Assembly: GCA_002503705.1 (NCBI GenBank)
Contig: DASH01000042.1
Location: 25,950 to 89,949, forward strand
Source: Candidatus Woesearchaeota archaeon UBA153
GTDB taxonomy: Archaea; Nanobdellota; Nanobdellia; Woesearchaeales; UBA525
Length of the DNA: 64,000 nucleotides
Direction of reading: 5' to 3'
Position numbers and translations under genes: made by a program. The notes under the pieces were generated by a model that ran no database searches, was not told the DNA's origin, and worked only from the letters and a program-made list of their open reading frames with translations. Within the stretch, counting starts at the first letter, position 1; each line of letters opens with the position of its first letter. Of the stretch, positions 897 through 61,811 are shown piece by piece.

Positions 897-3116
897 TCAG
901 AACGCCTTCTTCAGCTCCTCGAGGCGGCGCAGCGCCTCGTCGGCGGCGTAGCCGCCATTGCCGTACAATCGCGTCAGCTCGAGGAGCGCCAAGAATTTCG
1001 TGTTGCGCAAGAGGATGACGCGGACGGGGAAGGGGAGGCGCGCGTGCTTGATCGCGGTGACGAGCGCGTCGAACTCGAAACTCGCGGAGAGGCCGAACAT
1101 CGCCGCGTAGAGCGAGCGCAGCTTCCCTCGGGTCGCGTCGCGCAACGCCTCTTCCGGCACGCGTCCTCGCAACGAGCCGATCTCGTACTGCGCTTGCTTG
1201 ACGAGGTCGCCGTACTCTTCGTGACGGTGGACGCGGAAGTGCTTCGCGAACGAGTTCCACCCGAGGAGGAGCGAGTACGTGAGCGAGTCCTCATAGAAGA
1301 AGTGGATGGTCTTGCCGTGCGTGACGAGGAAGACGAGCCGCGACGCGTACACGGCGCGCGCCAAGTAGCCCGCGAAGAGCAAGACGAGGAGGAGCAGCGC
1401 GATGACGACCCCTTTGATGACGCCTGGCTTGTAGTCGCTCCACGCGCACGGCCTGCACGGTCCGTCGCAATCCACGAGCCGTTCCCCCTGGTTTTTCACG
1501 TTGTCGTTGCAGGTTGGGCATGCGTCGCAGGGTCCGCCGCAGTCTGTTTTCTCTTCTCCTTGGTTCTGTTCGCCGTCGTTGCAGGTTGGGCACGCGTCGC
1601 AGGGTCCGCCGCAGTCGACGCCGGTCTCTTTTCCGTTCTTCACGCCGTCCTCGCACGTCACGCCGACGCAGATGCCGCGGAGACACACGGCGCTCTCGCA
1701 CTCGCCGTTGTTCCGGCACCGCATCCCGTCGCCGCACGCCTCGCACACGCCGCCGCAATCGAGATCGCTCTCGTCCTGGTTCTTGACGCCGTCGTTGCAG
1801 GTTGGGCATGCGTCGCAGGGTCCGCCGCAGTCTGTTTTCTCTTCTCCTTGGTTCTGTTCGCCGTCGTTGCAGGTTGGGCACGCGTCGCAGGGTCCGCCGC
1901 AGTCGACGCCGGTCTCTTTTCCGTTCTTCACGCCGTCCTCGCACGTCGCGTCCGGCTCGCACGCCTGCATCGTCGCCGGCTTCTCCGTCTCGTTCGCGCA
2001 CGGAGTCAACGGTATGCAGACGCGTTCCTGATACCCGGGGAAGATGCACTCGCCCCAATCGGTGCAATCCCAACGCGGGACGCACGCTGGTTCGTCGCAC
2101 GCGCCGCAGTCCTTCGGGCAGGAAGCGCACTCTTCCGGCGCGATGCAGATCATGTCGCCGCAATAGTTGTTGCGGACGCCGACAACCGTCTCGTTCAGGA
2201 CCGTGTACTTGACGTTCCGGCTCGTGACGGTCGCGCCGCTCGAATCGGTCGCGGTGTACGCGTGATAGACGACGCCGGGCTCGCCCGCCTTCAGCGTGAA
2301 CAACTCTCCCTCGATGCTCGGCGTGACCGTTGCCCGAGTCATCTTCGTTTCCGGCCTCGGTCCCGTCTCCTCGAGCGTGAACGTCAAGACGCCACGGTCA
2401 GGGTCGAAGAAGTACAGGCTGAGGTTGAGCGTGAACGTCCCGCCGCGCGGCAGGGTGACGTCGATGAACTCCGTCACTTGGACTGGCGCCCGGTTGACAT
2501 TCGCGACGCTCACGTTCCACACGCGCACCGTCGTCAATCCTTCCCGGCTCGTCGCTCGCAGTTCGAGCGTGTGCAGGCCCCCCGCGTTGAAATCTGGATA
2601 ATACAGGTATGACTCGTTCTCCTTGGCGACGTCAACGCCGTCGAGGCGCCACGTGATTGTCGCGTTCTCTGTTTTCGCGGTGAAGAGGAACGGCCTCCCT
2701 TCTCGCGCGGTGACGACGCCGGGCGCGGGCGTCGTCGTCACAATCGGCGGGTGGCGGATCGCGTACTCCGCGACGCTCGTCGCGACGCACCCTCGCGGGG
2801 TGACCGCGTAGAAGAGGATTCTCGCGGTCGACGTCGTCGTTCCCGTCGGGGTGAACGTGAACGCTCCCGTCGTCTCGTCGAACGCGAAGCCCGGCACGCT
2901 GTCGCCGATGAACGTGGCGCCGAGCGTCGCGTCGCTCGTCGTCGTGAACGTGCCGTTCAGCGTGTGGTCGAGCCCGATAACGCTCGTCGCGGGTTCGAGC
3001 GCGATTTTCGGCGCGTCCGCCGGGCCGCAGTACGCGGTCGTCACGGTCGCGACGAGAAGTGTGACGAGGAGACTGAGAATCAGGACGTTGACACTCTTCC
3101 GCACGCGCACGCTCAC
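897..3116 (-). CDS. large type-I membrane surface protein: signal peptide, Ig-like region, about 6 cysteine-rich 28-aa repeats (C.DG..N..E...DCGGPC.AC), TM helix, cytoplasmic tail
   Basis: 739-aa ORF; N-terminal hydrophobic signal; repeated DCGGPCDACPTCNDG units; hydrophobic segment VVIALLLLVLLFAGYLA. Confidence 0.65.
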   Translation of the reverse strand: MSVRVRKSVNVLILSLLVTLLVATVTTAYCGPADAPKIALEPATSVIGLDHTLNGTFTTTSDATLGATFIGDSVPGFAFDETTGAFTFTPTGTTTSTARILFYAVTPRGCVATSVAEYAIRHPPIVTTTPAPGVVTAREGRPFLFTAKTENATITWRLDGVDVAKENESYLYYPDFNAGGLHTLELRATSREGLTTVRVWNVSVANVNRAPVQVTEFIDVTLPRGGTFTLNLSLYFFDPDRGVLTFTLEETGPRPETKMTRATVTPSIEGELFTLKAGEPGVVYHAYTATDSSGATVTSRNVKYTVLNETVVGVRNNYCGDMICIAPEECASCPKDCGACDEPACVPRWDCTDWGECIFPGYQERVCIPLTPCANETEKPATMQACEPDATCEDGVKNGKETGVDCGGPCDACPTCNDGEQNQGEEKTDCGGPCDACPTCNDGVKNQDESDLDCGGVCEACGDGMRCRNNGECESAVCLRGICVGVTCEDGVKNGKETGVDCGGPCDACPTCNDGEQNQGEEKTDCGGPCDACPTCNDNVKNQGERLVDCDGPCRPCAWSDYKPGVIKGVVIALLLLVLLFAGYLARAVYASRLVFLVTHGKTIHFFYEDSLTYSLLLGWNSFAKHFRVHRHEEYGDLVKQAQYEIGSLRGRVPEEALRDATRGKLRSLYAAMFGLSASFEFDALVTAIKHARLPFPVRVILLRNTKFLALLELTRLYGNGGYAADEALRRLEELKKAF
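1501..2090. repeat. near-identical tandem duplication (about 288-bp unit x2, with 84-bp sub-repeats) inside the cysteine-rich repeat gene
   Basis: ORF-track frames 1514-1786 and 1802-2212 begin with the identical 50 aa; frame 1501-2031 shows SLQVGHASQGPPQS repeated four times. Confidence 0.7.
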
Positions 3117-3220
3117 CTCACTAGCCCTCTCTGGAGCAGTCGTTATAAAAATGTGACGAACGGCTCCTCATCGTCGCAGCATTTCGTTCCCGTTTTTGTC
3201 TGGACGCAGTCCAGTCCCGT

Positions 3221-3305
3221 GCTGGCGCGGCAAAAGTCATAGTTGTTCTCAGTCGTACGGACGTACTCGCGAGAACTTTAACGAGAAAAACCGGGCCGCG
3301 CCAGC
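3221..3305. repeat. 85-bp intergenic palindromic element, copy A (GCTGGCGCGGC ... GCCGCGCCAGC), preceded by CTGGACGCAGTCCAG hairpin at 3200-3214
   Basis: Perfect 11-bp terminal inverted repeats; internal AAAAGTCATAGTT and ACGTACTCG motifs shared with copies at 7738, 57546, 61648. Confidence 0.6.
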
Positions 3306-3376
3306 CGAAACCCGCCGTGGCGGGCGTTCATCGTGCAAAGCATCAGTCGCGACCATCTCACCGATGCTCTTCGGCT

Positions 3377-7737: not shown

Positions 7738-7822
7738 GCTGGCGCGGCAAAAGTTGTTGTCGTCGTGCGAAAACGTCGAGTACGGAGACGCGCGAAAACG
7801 AGTACTTCCGTGCCGCGCCAGC
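7738..7822. repeat. 85-bp intergenic palindromic element, copy D
   Basis: GCTGGCGCGGCAAAAGTT ... GTGCCGCGCCAGC between hef and primase. Confidence 0.6.
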
Positions 7823-33443: not shown

Positions 33444-34943
33444 TTATCGCTTCTCAACCCAGAATCTGATGTACGTTCCCATCGCTGAGCCGCCTTGGTG
33501 GACGGAACGGTCCTCTCGAAGGATGTGGAAACCCGTTCGTTCGAGGAGACTTCGCGCGTCCTCCGCGGTGTAGTGATGGAAGTAGAGCGTCACGCCCTCG
33601 CGCTCGGCGAGCTCTCCACCGTCGCCCTCCTTGAGCGTGAGGAATGCGATACCGCTCGATTTCAGGACGCGTTGCCACTCTTGTAAAGCCCGTTCCGCTT
33701 CCGTCGGTCGCGAGTGGACGAGGACTGCGCACGCCCAGAGCCCATCGAACTCATTCTCGGGGAACGGCAAAGAATCTATGGTCGCGATAACAATCCTTCC
33801 GTCGGGAACTCTCCGCTTCGCCTCGACGACGAATTTCTTCTCCCGGTCGACGCCGGCGACATCGTATCCTCGCTTCGCGAAACTGGCGAGGTCGCGGCCG
33901 TTCCCGCAACCGACGTCGAGAATCTTGCCTCGAGGAACGTAATGGCGGAAATAGTCTATTTCCGCTTCCATCGTGTACGTGTCGTACTTCTTGATGAGTC
34001 GTTCCGCGTTGCGGGAATAAAACTTCTCGACGATCTCAGACGGTTTTTTCAGAACGACGTAAAACTCCTCATCACCGATGGCGAACTTCTCGAACGCCCA
34101 AGCTTTTCGTCTCACGAGCTTCTCGAACCACGCGCGGCGCTCGTGCTTGATCGTCTTGCCGCCGCCGAGGCTCTTCGTCGGGAACGAGACGACGAGCCAC
34201 TTCGCGGGGATGGAATCGAGGACTTTCCCGCTGATGTTCCGTTTCGCCTCCTCGAGCGTGTCGAGGAGCTTGAAGAGGAAGGCGACGTCCGCGAGGTCCT
34301 TGTTCGAGATGACGGGCAACGTGTCGTGGTGCTTCACCAAGTCGAGCGGGAAGACCTCGCCATCGATGCCTTCAATCTGGAAGAATCGTTTCACGTCGTC
34401 GAGCTGCGTGCTCGGCAAATCGGAAGCGAGATAGAGTGGTTTGCATCCCAGGAATGCGTAGCTGTACGGGTTCGCGCCGCACCCGAGATCGAGAACGACG
34501 CGAGGAACGCCCGTTATACTAAATATCTTCGCGTAGATTTCCTTGTAATATGAAATTCGTTCTTTCGAGCTCTGGTGGAGTAGGAGGAGCTTTTTGATGA
34601 GTTCCGCGTCATGCGGTCTCTTCTCGAGCTCGTCAAGGAGTTTTCCGCGCCCTTTCTTCTCGTCCAGGTCGAAGACGCCGTAGACGCTCCGCAACTCGGC
34701 GCGGACGAGCTTCTTGAGCTCTTCAAATTCCGAACTCCGCGAGAACTCCTTGAACGACTTAGAGTTTTTTACTTTTTCTTTTAACTTCTTGTTCTGTTGC
34801 AGAATTTTTTCTATTTTTTCCTGGACGAACTTGTCGTCGAGCGTCGACAGTTCTCGTTTCGCTTTAATCCCCGCGACGATGTTTGGGATCATGTGTACAC
34901 CATTGCAACCATCATGGCCGCGAAGCGATTGGACGCCCGCCAC
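33444..34943 (-). CDS. two-domain methyltransferase: N-terminal FmrO/RmtB/ArmA-family 16S rRNA (guanine1405-N7) methyltransferase-like domain fused to C-terminal class I SAM methyltransferase
   Basis: VLDLGCGANPYS and VVSFPTKSLGGG motifs as in aminoglycoside-resistance 16S MTases; second domain ILDVGCGNGRDLASFAKRGYDVAGVD; N-terminal half lower GC. Confidence 0.6.
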   Translation of the reverse strand: MAGVQSLRGHDGCNGVHMIPNIVAGIKAKRELSTLDDKFVQEKIEKILQQNKKLKEKVKNSKSFKEFSRSSEFEELKKLVRAELRSVYGVFDLDEKKGRGKLLDELEKRPHDAELIKKLLLLHQSSKERISYYKEIYAKIFSITGVPRVVLDLGCGANPYSYAFLGCKPLYLASDLPSTQLDDVKRFFQIEGIDGEVFPLDLVKHHDTLPVISNKDLADVAFLFKLLDTLEEAKRNISGKVLDSIPAKWLVVSFPTKSLGGGKTIKHERRAWFEKLVRRKAWAFEKFAIGDEEFYVVLKKPSEIVEKFYSRNAERLIKKYDTYTMEAEIDYFRHYVPRGKILDVGCGNGRDLASFAKRGYDVAGVDREKKFVVEAKRRVPDGRIVIATIDSLPFPENEFDGLWACAVLVHSRPTEAERALQEWQRVLKSSGIAFLTLKEGDGGELAEREGVTLYFHHYTAEDARSLLERTGFHILREDRSVHQGGSAMGTYIRFWVEKR

Positions 34944-35064
34944 CGGCGGGTTCTCGCTGGCGCGGCACGGATTTCCTCGTCCGTGTGCGTCGCGTTCTCG
35001 TGCGACTTCGCACTTTGACTATGACTCTTTGCCGCGCCAGCACGGGACTGCGCTACGCGCGCAG

Positions 35065-42393: not shown

Positions 42394-43377
42394 ATGAACC
42401 AGCGCAACACCATCATCGTCTTCATCGCCATCACGGCCTTGCTCGTCGCCGCGTGCGGCGGCCCTCAAGCGCGGAACGACCGCACCGTCTCGTTCATCGG
42501 CGGGAACGGCGGCGTGAACATCGGCCTTATCAACGGCGTCCCGCCGGCAGCGGTCTATGATGGCGGCAGGATGGACTTCGGCGTCGGCGTCGTCCTCGAG
42601 AACGTCGGCGAGTCCGACCTCGGCCCGACGACGGACAATCCGTTCGCGCGCGTCAGCCTGGAAGGGTTCCTTCCCGCAGCGTTCGGCATGACGCCCGCGC
42701 AGATGTCGCAAGACCTCGACCGGCCCCTGCTCGGCGCGCACAAGAACTTCGACGGCAGCATCCTGCCCGGGCAGATGCACAACCTCGTCTTCTCCCCGCT
42801 CAACTATCGGGAGCGCTTGCAAGGGAACAGGGTCTACACGTTCCTCATCAAGTTCTGCTACGACTACGAGAGCATCGCCACCGTCCCGATCTGCTTCAAG
42901 AACAGCATGATCGAGAACGTGCAGGACGCGCAGATCTGCACGCTCACCGGCGAGAAGTACCCGCAGAATAGCGGCGCGCCGTTGCACGTGACAAGCGTCG
43001 TCCAGAACCCGCTCGCCCCGTACAAGGTCATGGTGAACTTCGTCATCGAGCACGCGGGCACGGGAGAGTTCTACGGCCGCACCGCCGGCGAGACGTGCGA
43101 CCCGACGATCACCAACTCGAACAAGTACCGGGTGGACGTCGCAGTGTCGAGCGAAGACCCGGGGTTGAACATCCAGTGCAGCACGCTCGGCGGCGACGCG
43201 GCTGGCACGATCACGATGTTCCAAGGCGCCCCGCAGACGGTGACGTGCACGCTCACCGGGGACGCGGCGAGCGCGTCGCGCATCTACACTGACTTGTTGA
43301 CGGTCAACCTGCAGTACCGCTACGGCGAGTCGATCGCCCAGCCGATCGTCATCAACGCCGTGGGCAGCGCGGATTAG
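42394..43377 (+). CDS. lipoprotein-type secreted protein, paralog of 39626 and 41018 genes
   Basis: Signal plus VAAC lipobox; LQGNRVYTF, VIEHAGTGEF, QICT...NSGAPL motifs. Confidence 0.65.
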   Translation: MNQRNTIIVFIAITALLVAACGGPQARNDRTVSFIGGNGGVNIGLINGVPPAAVYDGGRMDFGVGVVLENVGESDLGPTTDNPFARVSLEGFLPAAFGMTPAQMSQDLDRPLLGAHKNFDGSILPGQMHNLVFSPLNYRERLQGNRVYTFLIKFCYDYESIATVPICFKNSMIENVQDAQICTLTGEKYPQNSGAPLHVTSVVQNPLAPYKVMVNFVIEHAGTGEFYGRTAGETCDPTITNSNKYRVDVAVSSEDPGLNIQCSTLGGDAAGTITMFQGAPQTVTCTLTGDAASASRIYTDLLTVNLQYRYGESIAQPIVINAVGSAD

Positions 43378-43454: not shown

Positions 43455-44078
43455 TTATTTGTCGGCGAGGAAAAGCGGTTCGATCGTCGCGTCCCGGCGT
43501 ATGAGCCGTTCCACGTTGGCGGGCGCGAGCAGCGTCTTGTTTCCTCGTGCGTCCTTGTATTCGATGCCTTTGTTGCGCAAGCTCTCGCTGATCTTCGCCA
43601 CGAGGAAAGCGCGTTCCTTAGTCAATCGCTCGACTTCTTCCCGGTTGAGCAGTTCGTCGACGAGGCCTGGCTGGCACGACTCGATGACTGGCTCCAGCGC
43701 GTTGAAGAACCCTTTGATGCATCGCGTGTAGTCTTCTTCTGTCGCGAGCGGGAGCGTCATCCACAGTTCGCCGACCTTGTGCTCTGGCGCGGGACCGTGG
43801 ATGTGCACCTGGACGTGCGGGCCGCCGTGCCGCTCGTCATGGTGATGCTCGATGAGGAACTCCCGCTGGAACACCTGCTCTGCCAGGTGCCGTTTGTGCT
43901 CGAACTTGAGCGTGAAGCGGACGGTGTGGTTCTCGTTCAGGCTCTGCTGGCCGCGCATCGCCAACGACGCCGTGTAGTCTTCATCCTTGACCGTGACGCT
44001 GCCCGCCGTCCCGGTCGAGACCAGGTTCTCTTGGTTGAAGAACGGCAGGAACTCCTGGATGTTGAGGAATGGCTTCAT
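43455..44078 (-). CDS. hypothetical protein with His-rich segment (HHHDERHGGPHVQVHIHGP)
   Basis: 207-aa ORF, 4-bp overlap with upstream gene. Confidence 0.45.
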   Translation of the reverse strand: MKPFLNIQEFLPFFNQENLVSTGTAGSVTVKDEDYTASLAMRGQQSLNENHTVRFTLKFEHKRHLAEQVFQREFLIEHHHDERHGGPHVQVHIHGPAPEHKVGELWMTLPLATEEDYTRCIKGFFNALEPVIESCQPGLVDELLNREEVERLTKERAFLVAKISESLRNKGIEYKDARGNKTLLAPANVERLIRRDATIEPLFLADK

Positions 44079-44626
44079 GGGTGGATGCCGAGCTTGATGA
44101 GCTCGAACTCGACGTCGTGTTCGTACGCGCGGTCGAGGCCGAGATTATGAAGTTTCCGCTTCCACCACCCGAGATCCAAGACGTGTTTCTCTTGGATCCT
44201 GAAGAGCGGGTCGACGTGTGCCCTGATGATGTCCGCGAGGATGTTGAGGTACTCTTTCGCCATCGTCTTCGCGTCAGCGTACTTCTCCGTCAGCTTCCGC
44301 TCGCCGCCTTTGTAGATGACTTTCGTGTACGCGATGCGGAATTGGAACTCCATCGGAATCTGTGATGGCGGCACGGCGTATACGTACTCAATCTTGCTGT
44401 CGCCGAACACGGAGACTGACGCTCTCTTCTTCTCATCGCTGATGGTGAGTCTGTTCTCCGTTGCCACTTCACGATATTGTCGGGCCAGCGTGACGAGCTT
44501 CTTGATGATGTCGTCGTACGTGTCTTTCCTTTCACCGAATTCGTCCAGTAAGTCTTTCGTCCCTTTCTTGATCCACAGCGTCGTGGGCTGCATCTGGAGT
44601 TCTACGGCGTCTTTCATGACGATCAC
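44075..44626 (-). CDS. hypothetical protein
   Basis: 183-aa ORF co-directional, AT-rich promoter region at 44630-44725. Confidence 0.45.
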   Translation of the reverse strand: MIVMKDAVELQMQPTTLWIKKGTKDLLDEFGERKDTYDDIIKKLVTLARQYREVATENRLTISDEKKRASVSVFGDSKIEYVYAVPPSQIPMEFQFRIAYTKVIYKGGERKLTEKYADAKTMAKEYLNILADIIRAHVDPLFRIQEKHVLDLGWWKRKLHNLGLDRAYEHDVEFELIKLGIHP

Positions 44627-44727
44627 CTTCGTTTCTATAGATACTATAGAGGCAATAGTTTTAAAAGTTTTCCCTTGATATAGATTTTTTCCATACAGAA
44701 AAGATTATCGAAAGAGAGAAGTCCTCG

Positions 44728-45375
44728 GTGCGCCGTCTCGCGGCTGGCGTCGGTTTTCTCGGCTTCCGGATGTTCCCGCGCCACCGTCTCCTGCACCGGA
44801 AGAACCTGCGTCGCTTCGAAAAACGATTGTGGACGTTCAGAGAACGATACGAACAGGGAGATCTCGAGCGCGAGAAAATCGTCGAGTCGTTCGAGGGCTG
44901 GCTTTCGTACGCGGCGAACGCTGACACATACAAGTACCGTCGCCACGCGACGCGGCTCTTCAACACCTCGTTCCCCGCTCGGCCGAACGTGACCGTCTCG
45001 AATCCGCGGAAGCGCGAGAACTTCCTCAAGAAGATGGCTGCCGCGTCCATGCCGTTCAGCAGGCTCAAGACGCGGCAGCTCTTCCTGCGGGGAATGAGCA
45101 TCGAGGAAATCGCGCGTCGTCGCGGCTTCACGGAAGGCACGATATGGAATCATCTCTGTTTGCTCATTGAGCATCGTCAGCTCCCACTTTGGCGTGTGCT
45201 GCCAAAAGAGAAGATTGACGCGATACTGCCGCACGTCGCATCACCGGACGACCAGCTCGCCGATATAAGAACACGTCTTCGAGACGACCGACGCGAGCAT
45301 ATAACGTTCGATGAAATCTCCCGCGTCCTCGCTCACCTTCGGAGCCGGCCGAAGGAGCGGCGCACTCTTCAATGA
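44728..45375 (+). CDS. DGR-type reverse-transcriptase thumb-region homolog (no fingers/palm) fused to sigma-70 region-4-like HTH
   Basis: GFLGFRMFPRHRLLHRKNLRRFEKRL and SFEGWLSYAANADTYKYRR resemble the FLGYRI.P.H.LLRK / SW.GHA..ADT block after YxDD in DGR RTs; HTH RGMSIEEIARRRGFTEGTIWNHL. Confidence 0.45.
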   Translation: MRRLAAGVGFLGFRMFPRHRLLHRKNLRRFEKRLWTFRERYEQGDLEREKIVESFEGWLSYAANADTYKYRRHATRLFNTSFPARPNVTVSNPRKRENFLKKMAAASMPFSRLKTRQLFLRGMSIEEIARRRGFTEGTIWNHLCLLIEHRQLPLWRVLPKEKIDAILPHVASPDDQLADIRTRLRDDRREHITFDEISRVLAHLRSRPKERRTLQ

Positions 45376-45444: not shown

Positions 45445-45786
45445 TCACTGCTTCTCTTTCAAGATGATCGGCTTGTTCGGGCTCGTCGCGAGGTCGAAGA
45501 GGAGGATGGCGAAGATGGCGATGGTCGTCAAGATCGTGTTGAGCCTGCTCTCGAGCATCGTGATGAGCAGCGTGTTCAGGATCGCGGCGAGGACGATGAG
45601 CGAGCCGTTCAGGTAGTCTTGGCGTCGCGTGAAGACCCATCCGGCGTACCCGGCGAGGACGACGGTGACGACGAGGAGCGCGCTCTCGGGAAGGATGTGT
45701 GGGATGAGCGCGTAGTACGCCCACAGGCAGACGAGGAGGAAGAACCGGAACGGCATCCAGCCCGAATAATCCTTGTGACGCGTCAT
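45445..45786 (-). CDS. small membrane protein (3 TM)
   Basis: 113-aa hydrophobic ORF. Confidence 0.4.
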   Translation of the reverse strand: MTRHKDYSGWMPFRFFLLVCLWAYYALIPHILPESALLVVTVVLAGYAGWVFTRRQDYLNGSLIVLAAILNTLLITMLESRLNTILTTIAIFAILLFDLATSPNKPIILKEKQ

Positions 45787-47844: not shown

Positions 47845-48879
47845 ATGGGCGTCGCGATCACCGAACTCCTCGAAGGCAAGGAGATATCCATCGAAGACTT
47901 GCGCGGCAAGATCCTCGCCGTCGACGCGTTCAACATGCTCTACCAGTTCCTCACGACGATCAGGATGCAGGACGGCACGCCGTTGCGCGACAGCAAGGGC
48001 AACGTGACGAGCCACCTCATCGGCCTCTTCTCGAGGACGACGGCGTTGATGGCGGACGGCGTCAAGCTCGCCTTCGTCTTCGACGGGGAGCCGCCAGCGT
48101 TGAAGAAAAAAGAACGGGAACGCCGCGCCGCCGTAAAAGCAGAAGCCCTCCTGCATCTGAAGAGCGCGGAAGCGCGCGAAGACGTCGCGGAGATGAAGAA
48201 ATACGCCGGACGCACCGCCACCCTCTCCCCCGAGATGGTCGACGAGGCGAAACAACTCCTGCGCGCGCTCGGCATCCCCGTCCTCCAGGCGCCGAGCGAA
48301 GGAGAAGCGCAAGCGGCGCACGTCTGCGCGAGAGGCGACGCGTACGCCGTCGTTTCGCAGGACGCGGACAGCTTCCTCTTCGGCGCGCCGCGCGTCGTGA
48401 AGAACCTCAACCTTTCGGGCAAGCGGAAGAAGACGAGCGCGCTCGCGTACGAGACCATCCATCCAGAACTCCTGAGCCTCGACGACAGCCTGAAAGCGCT
48501 CAACCTGACGCGCGACCAGCTCATCGTCCTCGCGCTCCTCGTCGGCACCGACTACAATCGGGAAGGCATCCGCGGCATCGGGCCGAAGAAAGCCCTCAAG
48601 CTCTTGGAAGCGCACGGCGCTGACTTTGCCGCGCTCTTCGACGCGGTCTCGTGGAGCGAACACTACCCGGACTTGCCGTGGAAGGTCCTGGTCGAAACAT
48701 TCAAAAAGATGCCGGTCACGGACGAGTACGCGCTCTCCTGGGCGAAACCGGACGCGGCCGCGTTGCGCGAACTCCTCGTCGTCCAGCACGACTTCAGCGA
48801 GGAACGAGTCGCCGCCGCGCTCGCCAAGCTCGGCGCGAGCGCCGCGGCGCAACAGCGAGGTCTCGGAGAGTTCCTGTAA
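47845..48879 (+). CDS. fen: flap endonuclease FEN-1
   Basis: MGV start, XPG-N (LAVDAFNMLYQF) and XPG-I (GEAQAA) plus H3TH motifs. Confidence 0.85.
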   Translation: MGVAITELLEGKEISIEDLRGKILAVDAFNMLYQFLTTIRMQDGTPLRDSKGNVTSHLIGLFSRTTALMADGVKLAFVFDGEPPALKKKERERRAAVKAEALLHLKSAEAREDVAEMKKYAGRTATLSPEMVDEAKQLLRALGIPVLQAPSEGEAQAAHVCARGDAYAVVSQDADSFLFGAPRVVKNLNLSGKRKKTSALAYETIHPELLSLDDSLKALNLTRDQLIVLALLVGTDYNREGIRGIGPKKALKLLEAHGADFAALFDAVSWSEHYPDLPWKVLVETFKKMPVTDEYALSWAKPDAAALRELLVVQHDFSEERVAAALAKLGASAAAQQRGLGEFL

Positions 48880-57545: not shown

Positions 57546-57633
57546 GCTGGCGCGGCCAAAGTTATAGTTTTCGTTCTTCAGTGCACGAACGTACTCGCAT
57601 GCACTTGTACGAGGAGATCCGTGCCGCGTCAGC
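57546..57633. repeat. 88-bp intergenic palindromic element, copy B
   Basis: GCTGGCGCGGCCAAAGTTATAGTT ... GTGCCGCGTCAGC starting 2 nt after stop codon. Confidence 0.55.
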
Positions 57634-57663
57634 ACGAGACGAGCCATGCTCGGCGAAGAACTC

Positions 57664-61647: not shown

Positions 61648-61811
61648 CTGGACGCAGTCCAGTTAGTGTTGGCGCGTCCCGGATTGTCTCGTTCATCAGG
61701 AGTTTCTCGTTCTCGCGCGTTTCGCAGTTCTCGTCCGTCGTGTTTTTCTCGTCGAAAAACAGCGTCGTCCGTACGATTCGTGCCAAGACTATGAATTCCT
61801 GCCGCGCCAGC
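61648..61811. repeat. longer degenerate copy (C) of the intergenic palindromic element, beginning with CTGGACGCAGTCCAG hairpin
   Basis: TTGGCGCG left arm ... TGCCGCGCCAGC right arm; same hairpin as copy A. Confidence 0.45.

Follow-up and report, generated by a model that had tools for sequence, protein, structure and literature searches.

A probable truncated reverse transcriptase gene of a diversity-generating retroelement in a woesearchaeotal genome

Is the open reading frame (ORF) at 44728-45375 in a 64-kb stretch of the genome of Candidatus Woesearchaeota archaeon UBA153 (contig DASH01000042.1; hereafter the window) what is left of a diversity-generating retroelement (DGR), or does it encode a small regulator in its own right? 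The original prediction, made from the sequence alone, described it as a stand-alone homolog of the thumb region of a DGR reverse transcriptase (RT), fused to a helix-turn-helix (HTH) resembling sigma-70 region 4, and offered two readings: a decayed DGR next to a surface-protein array or an RT-derived nucleic-acid-binding regulator. The ORF is real, and its 215 residues match the C-terminal part of a DPANN-type DGR RT, approximately residues 262-475 of the 560-amino-acid (aa) relative P0004. We are highly confident that it arose via truncation of a DGR RT gene, and evenly divided on the full statement that it is a truncated DGR RT remnant that is now functionless. The parts of the ORF are as follows.

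44728-45375, plus strand: ORF of 215 codons with a GTG start and a TGA stop
44737-44976, plus strand: RT motif 7 (the GVGFLGF beta-hairpin) and thumb helices, residues 4-83, delimited from bRT, PHROG, and the AlphaFold2 (AF2) model
44977-45060, plus strand: linker, residues 84-111, including a helix at 93-107, delimited from alignments and the AF2 model, its conservation confined to the RT+HTH_40 clade described below
45061-45318, plus strand: HTH_40 domain (PF14493), residues 112-197, containing the helix-turn-helix RGMSIEEIARRRGFTEGTIWNHL, delimited from Pfam and Foldseek

Domains of the ORF and the RTs that share them

The DGR RT motif blocks noticed in the original prediction are present in the ORF, far beyond chance. 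Its N-terminus, GVGFLGFRMFPRHRLLHRKNLRRFEKR...EGWLSYAANADTYKY (residues 4-68), pairs with approximately residues 254-314 of the Bordetella phage RT (bRT, 8ub7_A), GINFLGYRIWPTHKLLRKSSVKRAKRK...ASWSGHAQWADTH, at E = 3.4e-4 as a single sequence and 5.8e-7 with the family profile, and PHROG 1423 (“Reverse transcriptase”) covers residues 6-83 at E = 3.5e-11. The family profile also matches a group II intron RT (7uim_D, E = 0.043), more weakly than bRT. In a family hidden Markov model (HMM) built without the window ORF, the ORF scores 242 bits (E = 8e-76), which lies within the range of the members (305 ± 26 bits on average; P0004, 251 bits).

The C-terminal domain is HTH_40 (E = 1.6e-15; 57.6 bits against a cut-off of 27; profile positions 2-85 of 89) and not the sigma-70 region 4.2 HTH for which it had been taken. 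A relationship to sigma factors was rejected because Sigma70_r4_2 scores 19.1 bits against a cut-off of 25.7, TIGR02937 (sigma70-ECF) scores 12.9 against 42.9, and regions 2 and 3 are missing. The broader alternative of an ancient stand-alone thumb-like/HTH regulator that merely resembles RTs, or of a sigma-related protein, can point to weak sub-threshold matches to Sigma70_r4_2, HTH_38, and HTH_23, but the significant family is HTH_40 and the full-coverage homologs examined are all RTs or RT-gene fragments, so we consider this alternative highly improbable.

The AF2 model of the ORF (mean predicted local distance difference test, pLDDT, of 83.6) consists of two well-folded helical modules. 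The thumb part has strands at 8-10 and 13-15 and helices at 24-42, 48-64, and 68-81, with a pLDDT of about 72-92 in the helices, while residues 1-20 (the motif 7 hairpin) have low pLDDT and are poorly defined; the HTH_40 domain is modeled with a pLDDT of 91-97. The top Foldseek match of the model in the PDB is the RecQ C-terminal domain of P. gingivalis (3iuo), with a probability of 0.99 and a template-modeling (TM) score (target) of 0.53 over 104 columns but an E-value of 0.54, and the best BFVD match is a DEAD/SNF2-like helicase.

A HMMER search of 1.84 billion protein representatives (E ≤ 1e-3) returned 570 proteins that match the ORF, and among the matches listed, most align within RT-length proteins or fragments and end near their C-termini. 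A profile search of 5.8 billion clusters added 75 relatives, mostly annotated RVT_1+HTH_40, of which the few named ones come from metagenome-assembled genomes (MAGs) of Nanoarchaeota, Woesearchaeota, or Aenigmarchaeota. Neither protein library holds anything more than 47% identical to the ORF, and a word-indexed search with the single ORF protein found only the ORF itself. A scan of GTDB genomes added one Aenigmatarchaeota RT with 55% identity over the thumb only, and a scan of JGI metagenomes one distant fragment.

These relatives form a clade with the architecture RVT_1, thumb, and HTH_40 in about 500-560 aa. P0004 (560 aa, GCA_041305085.1) has RVT_1 at 75-280, an ORF-like region at 271-470, and a Cys-rich tail; P0002, P0003, and P0009 are RVT_1+HTH_40 fragments, and P0166, annotated as [quoted passage not shown], is a further example of the clade. 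The ORF is 40-47% identical to the RVT_1+HTH_40 proteins and co-linear with them across all 215 residues. The Cys-rich tail occupies the C-terminal ~90 aa of P0003, P0004, P0005, P0166, and P0200 (C-[YF]-R-K-C ... C ... I-C-V-L-P), has no Pfam assignment, and is absent from the window ORF and the short-tailed members; it may bind zinc.

The RT+HTH_40 relatives carry the motif G-MPLGNLTSQ, whose LGNLTSQ (motif 4) we take to be a DGR RT hallmark. Pairs of template repeat (TR) and variable repeat (VR) lie directly upstream of the RT in three loci of relatives (L002, L007, and L009), and their mismatches fall at TR adenines in 8/8, 15/16, and 6/6 cases, respectively. The targets of these DGRs form a loose family of proteins of ~280 aa, and no Avd-family Pfam match was found among the called neighboring genes of the three loci. 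The RT is intact in a single frame in L002 (P0004, 560 aa) and in the IMG/VR viral contig L015. The loci of these relatives are real DGRs, and the combination of thumb and HTH is how the RTs of this DPANN clade normally end; the original prediction recognized the combination correctly, but it did not originate with this ORF. With RTs of this kind, next to adenine-specific TR/VR pairs, as the nearest relatives, the decayed-DGR reading gains support, and the suggestion to check whether homologs are full-length yielded only RTs or pieces of RT genes among those with full coverage.

Truncation of the RT gene and fate of the remnant

As predicted, the fingers and palm are absent. The ORF has no Pfam match to RVT_1, and neither the YxDD of the catalytic palm nor motif 4 ([LIV]GxxxSQ) was found in it. 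Searches of the whole window by tblastn with four long or full-length RT relatives (P0004, P0054, P0063, and P0009) recover only 44665-45354. No A-biased TR/VR pair was found in the window by a repeat search and by self-BLAST with a mismatch-bias screen; the same repeat search recovers the TR/VR pairs of L002, L007, and L009 as a positive control. The window has no homologs of the targets of these three loci (tblastn E > 0.5), and no Pfam match to Avd or HRDC occurs among ten neighboring ORFs, the only ones scanned. The adjoining surface-protein array, which had been put forward in connection with the decayed DGR, is not a DGR target, as it has neither a VR nor similarity to the targets of related DGRs.

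The similarity to RTs starts neither exactly at the FLGF block, as originally stated, nor at the start codon, since it continues in frame for at least four codons (EKSS), and probably for 21, 5' of the GTG. The features upstream of the ORF are the following.

44665-44727, plus strand: in-frame, non-coding relic of RT motif 6, KFSLDIDFFHTEKIIEREKSS, found by tblastn and HMM
44662-44664, plus strand: TAA that closes the frame upstream, with further stops 5' in the same frame
44618-44727, no strand assigned: divergent intergenic spacer with a guanine-cytosine (GC) content of 34%, containing the TATA-like runs TTTTAAAA (44659-44666) and GATATAGATTTTTT (44677-44690)

All tblastn queries give alignments that reach 44716 (EKSS, which includes the K-S of RT motif 6), and for some of them the alignment extends to 44683 or 44665. 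Relative to the consensus ..kInnFLkekLklelHPdKSk, three codons are deleted from the relic, and the conserved L, H, and P are gone. The 21 codons upstream of the GTG add 8.9 bits to the score against the family HMM (built without the window sequence), a gain matched in 7/500 amino-acid shuffles and 0/500 nucleotide shuffles, and the same segment in intact members contributes 39.6 ± 2.6 bits. The similarity of the upstream relic may be partly due to chance, as it is short and was seen post hoc (p ~ 0.002-0.014).

A probable course of events can be proposed from these remains. The ancestral gene would have encoded a DPANN-type DGR RT with RVT_1 fingers and palm, thumb, and HTH_40. A deletion or replacement would then have taken RT motifs 1-5, most of motif 6, the TR, and the target gene, leaving the 3' 650-710 nucleotides (nt) of the RT gene; a two-gene module now stands where the lost parts would have been. 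An assembly artefact, in which a chimeric join cut an intact RT gene, has a negligible probability: contigs that are chimeric at low coverage or error-prone do occur in the family (P0008/L005 and L004), but 3,458 bp including the junction are 100% identical in an independent ENA assembly, and at least three contigs carry the ORF protein (size classes of 2-5 kb, 20-50 kb, and 50-200 kb).

RT genes are also disrupted elsewhere in the clade. Among the seven short members examined (P0005-P0008, P0172, P0179, and P0200), three arose through a nonsense codon or frameshifts (L006, L004, and L018/19), two are separate truncations (L016 and P0172), one is a probable chimera (P0008), and one lies on a contig too short to resolve (L003). 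Frameshifts occur in the RT genes of L004 and L007-L010. The nonsense codon of L006 (3-1415) falls within motif 4, and L018 (1-1725) and L019 (4041-5792), contigs from different samples, have one in-frame stop, a TAA that replaces a Q codon of the thumb. The ORF of L016/L017 (1-746) begins where the window ORF does, at the equivalent of P0004 residue 262, with 101 nt of unrelated sequence on its 5' side and a DGR-target-like gene on its 3' side; no similarity that would indicate a common mobile-element end was found upstream of the two truncations. In P0172, the first ~25 residues of an epimerase-like protein are joined to the RT directly after YxDD. Phage-type integrase genes adjoin the RT in L004 and L018. 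P0008 (L005 306-1529) has the N-terminus of a ResIII/DEAD helicase, but its C-terminal ~160 aa are identical to those of the RT P0194. It was considered as a sign that thumb and HTH form a modular unit and rejected because of this identity and because the contig has 1.8x coverage and a frameshift; P0008 is probably an assembly chimera and no real helicase-thumb fusion.

In DGRs of this clade with adenine-biased TR/VR pairs, two overlapping ORFs divide the RT gene between them (L007 5400-6897, with the duplicate L008, and L009 5427-7122, with the duplicate L010), and L004 has a tract of the same kind. The split lies between RT motifs 3 and 4, directly before G-MPLGNLTSQ, in a simple-sequence tract. 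The tracts are listed here.

L007 6007-6026 (L007/L008): (GA)10
L009 5973-5983 (L009/L010): G11
L004 74-83: (GA)5

One more GA or one G less would give a continuous RT of 499 or 564 aa, and the intact relatives L002, L015, L006, and L011 have no repeat at this position. Tract length does not vary between the two assemblies available per locus. The position of the tracts suggests slippage-controlled (phase-variable or frameshift-dependent) expression of the RT in this clade, and a search of the literature found no report of slippage-controlled DGR RT expression.

Such two-ORF genes, which are often called in the clade, raise the alternative of a split enzyme, in which the window ORF would be the C-terminal subunit and the N-terminal half of the RT would be encoded elsewhere in a genome of which only 64 kb are visible here. 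The pieces in the clade, however, are adjacent or overlapping, divided by (GA)10, G11, or a single nonsense codon, and never dispersed. The break in the window lies inside the palm, between motifs 6 and 7, with a decayed piece of motif 6 still attached upstream, and no N-terminal RT half was found in the window. A split enzyme is therefore very unlikely.

The fragment is most likely an inert or just fortuitously expressed relic. Its translation product, if there is one, would be a polypeptide without catalytic activity that combines the three-helix bundle of the thumb with HTH_40, both nucleic-acid-binding modules, and from this we infer at most a binding or regulatory role. Without a YxDD palm there can be no polymerization or cDNA synthesis and hence no retroelement or diversifying activity, and without a TR/VR pair in the window there is nothing to diversify. 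The frequent disruption of RT genes in the clade and the absence of an ortholog with the same architecture speak for a dead relic.

Several observations weigh against a functionless remnant. The reading frame of the ORF is fully intact. Blocks of the ORF score 58-100% of the family mean, compared with 27% for the upstream relic, and positions of at least 2 bits are kept at 66/74 in the ORF (89%; 90-100% in intact members) and at 5/12 in the relic (24 positions upstream), a contrast with p = 6e-4 in Fisher's test that is not significant at a stricter cut-off (p = 0.1). Exactly at the start codon, the GC content changes from 59% in the ORF, where no 63-nt window falls below 48%, to 33% in the relic. 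If neutral decay is dated to the truncation (0.15-0.4 substitutions per site), the probability that an unselected 215-codon frame would have stayed open is approximately 0.07-0.004, indels ignored, and so improbable an open frame points to continued constraint on the ORF. In addition, dead DNA is expected to be purged fast in small DPANN genomes.

The alternative to a dead relic is exaptation, in which selection has kept the thumb and HTH_40 as a separate small protein that binds nucleic acids (a regulator, for example, or a factor binding RNA or DNA) and is expressed from the AT-rich spacer, a possibility that we entertain tentatively. The sharp break in conservation and GC at the start codon and the improbability of the open frame under the neutral divergence implied by the relic are joined by the coding-type GC pattern that the ORF retains at the three codon positions (GC1/2/3 of 0.62/0.44/0.71), by the two folded modules of the AF2 model, and by the TATA-like runs upstream. 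The bRT thumb itself binds RNA, as it touches the template:primer duplex and is ringed by single-stranded “Thumb Ring” RNA (bioRxiv 10.1101/2023.10.23.563531), and the independently derived ORF of L016, which starts from the same residue, hints that this boundary gives a viable protein. On the other hand, there is no conserved ortholog family: apart from the thumb-only GTDB match, no relative above 47% identity was found among clusters, representatives, GTDB genomes, and JGI metagenomes. The dating argument depends on the upstream relic, would be void if that similarity were due to chance, and fails if the true breakpoint lies near 44716, as in L016. The motif 7 hairpin (residues 1-20) is predicted to be disordered without the palm. 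As for the regulator of the original prediction, it does not emerge as an established stand-alone family, as the databases searched contain no specifically related protein with the same truncated architecture and the best non-self identity is 43-47%.

The start signals also count against exaptation. The GTG has no Shine-Dalgarno sequence, and no TATA-like box stands at the usual -33 to -24, so that the promoter spacing is non-canonical. ATG is the start codon of nearly all of the other genes examined (~30 upstream regions), so that the start of the ORF is atypical for the genome. In many of these genes a TATA-like box lies at about -33 to -24 and a Shine-Dalgarno sequence is lacking, which suggests leaderless mRNAs; a minority have GGTG or GGAGG. 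The spacer at 44618-44727 could carry promoters for either strand; the other divergent spacers in the window have a GC content of 47-50%. Codon usage likewise speaks for a relic: the ORF has a GC3 of 0.71 compared with 0.83 for host genes and a codon adaptation index of 0.50 compared with 0.65 ± 0.11.

Genomic setting of the remnant

The remnant is located in a variable islet, because the flanks are conserved in the related, Woesearchaeota-like genome L013 (GCA_028279755.1) but the content of the interval differs. The genes concerned are listed below.

42394-43377, plus strand: 327-aa lipoprotein-like surface protein, left border of the islet (ortholog at L013 19880-20914, 55% identity)
43455-44078, minus strand: 207-aa gene, function unassigned, overlapping the 180-aa gene
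44075-44617, minus strand: 180-aa gene, function unassigned, with an ATG after GGTGA (longest ORF call to 44626)
45445-45786, minus strand: 113-aa membrane protein, convergent with the ORF, right border of the islet (ortholog at L013 18669-19001, 40% identity)

The gene at 42394-43377 is the last of the surface array and a conserved chromosomal gene, whose ortholog in L013 has no RT beside it; the protein shows no similarity to DGR targets. In L013, one unrelated 169-aa gene lies between the flanking orthologs. The two minus-strand genes (43455-44617), which are absent from L013, lie at the position expected for the RT core, TR, and target, and the divergent neighbor on the opposite strand is as the original prediction had described it. 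Pfam and PHROGs gave nothing significant for the minus-strand genes (43455-44626), and PADLOC gave nothing for the ORF or its neighbors. By eye, the N-terminus of the 180-aa protein, TLWIKKGTKDLLDEFGERKDTYDDIIKKLV, looks like a ribbon-helix-helix DNA-binding domain, although no library match was obtained.

The host has an unusually high GC content of approximately 60%, and its FEN1 (47845-48879) is 57-72% identical to the nearest proteins, named as Woesearchaeota or Nanoarchaeota, which places the host among the DPANN archaea. Synteny with L012 and L013 extends from 45900 to about 55600 (a 323-aa gene, FEN1, EamA, Trm5, and AAA ATPases). In the relatives, the syntenic region is immediately preceded by a block that contains a tRNA-splicing endonuclease, an Apyc1-like metallo-beta-lactamase, a histone, and Hjc. 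This block is inverted in the window, at ~57.6-63.4 kb, and a synteny breakpoint lies near the RT relic.

Two repeats of the window were considered as components of a DGR and rejected. The 218-nt repeat (1445-1662 and 1733-1950), taken as a candidate TR/VR pair, is an exact tandem duplication of ~160 nt without A bias; its copies are spaced by 288 nt within a Cys-rich repeat ORF (897-3116, minus strand), and the mismatches, which lie around the identical core, show no preference for adenines. The second, a four-copy element of ~90 nt, has up to 76% A/T-sided mismatches but is mainly an intergenic hairpin element rather than a TR. Its copies, mostly intergenic and ~90-110 nt long, are as follows.

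3212-3330, plus strand: four-copy element
7738-7822, plus strand: four-copy element
34930-35050, minus strand: four-copy element
57546-57648, plus strand: four-copy element

The element has an invariant 11-bp closing stem, GCTGGCGCGGC...GCCGCGCCAGC, the conserved inner flanks AAAGTYATAGT and ACGAGNANNTCCGTG, and a variable center. A GC hairpin follows two of the copies, and one copy sits just inside a questionable ORF with a TTG start. The core pattern of the element occurs four times against 0.5 expected, one of these being a 2-mismatch occurrence at 61795-61811 and not the 34930 copy. The element is not a tRNA (the window has no tRNA hits), and its score reaches the gathering threshold of no Rfam family; candidate identities are a small structured RNA and a miniature inverted-repeat transposable element (MITE)-like sequence.

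Comparison with known systems

The ORF should be annotated neither as a regulator or sigma-like protein nor as part of an active DGR. The locus documents the loss of a DGR in a high-GC, Woesearchaeota-like lineage, within a variable islet between conserved genes. The well-kept ORF next to a decayed relic also makes it a possible exaptation of an RT thumb, which, if true, would be a documented case in an archaeon.

The result extends to the RTs themselves. C-terminal extensions of up to ~150 aa without assignment occur in ~20% of DGR RTs (Wu et al., 2018, PMC5758913), and the only recognizable extension motif in that survey was MutS_I, in three RTs. The linker and HTH_40 described here resemble these unassigned extensions in position and size, and no link between HTH_40/PF14493 and RTs was found in the searchable literature. 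The previously unassigned extension of one DGR RT clade can now be named as HTH_40, with a fold like that of the RecQ C-terminal domain. Given that no Avd-family Pfam match occurs among the called neighboring genes of the cassettes, HTH_40 may be a built-in nucleic-acid-binding accessory of the RTs of this clade.

Among known proteins, the ORF is most like the DPANN RT+HTH_40 DGR RTs, with which it shares motif 7, thumb, linker, and HTH_40 and, for the short-tailed members, the C-terminal end. Unlike them, it lacks residues 1 to ~261 (the N-terminal extension, fingers, palm, YVDD, and LGNLTSQ), and it has no TR, no VR-bearing target of ~280 aa, and no Cys-rich tail of the kind found in some relatives; its GC content is 59%, whereas that of the relatives with measured loci is 27-47%. 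With the bRT of phage BPP-1 it shares FLGYR..P.HKLLRK and a block that reads SW.GHA..ADT against GW.SYA..ADT. In contrast to the RTs of the clade, bRT stops after the thumb (328 aa), has no extra DNA/RNA-binding domain, and needs a separate Avd pentamer; we infer that HTH_40 may substitute for Avd in the clade. The resemblance to sigma-70 region 4 and LuxR HTHs is that of a generic three-helix HTH with local sequence similarity at residues 117-144, at sub-threshold scores. Profile and structure instead match the C-terminal HTH_40 of RecQ-type and other helicases (3iuo), a domain that is placed here on an RT thumb and not on a helicase core.

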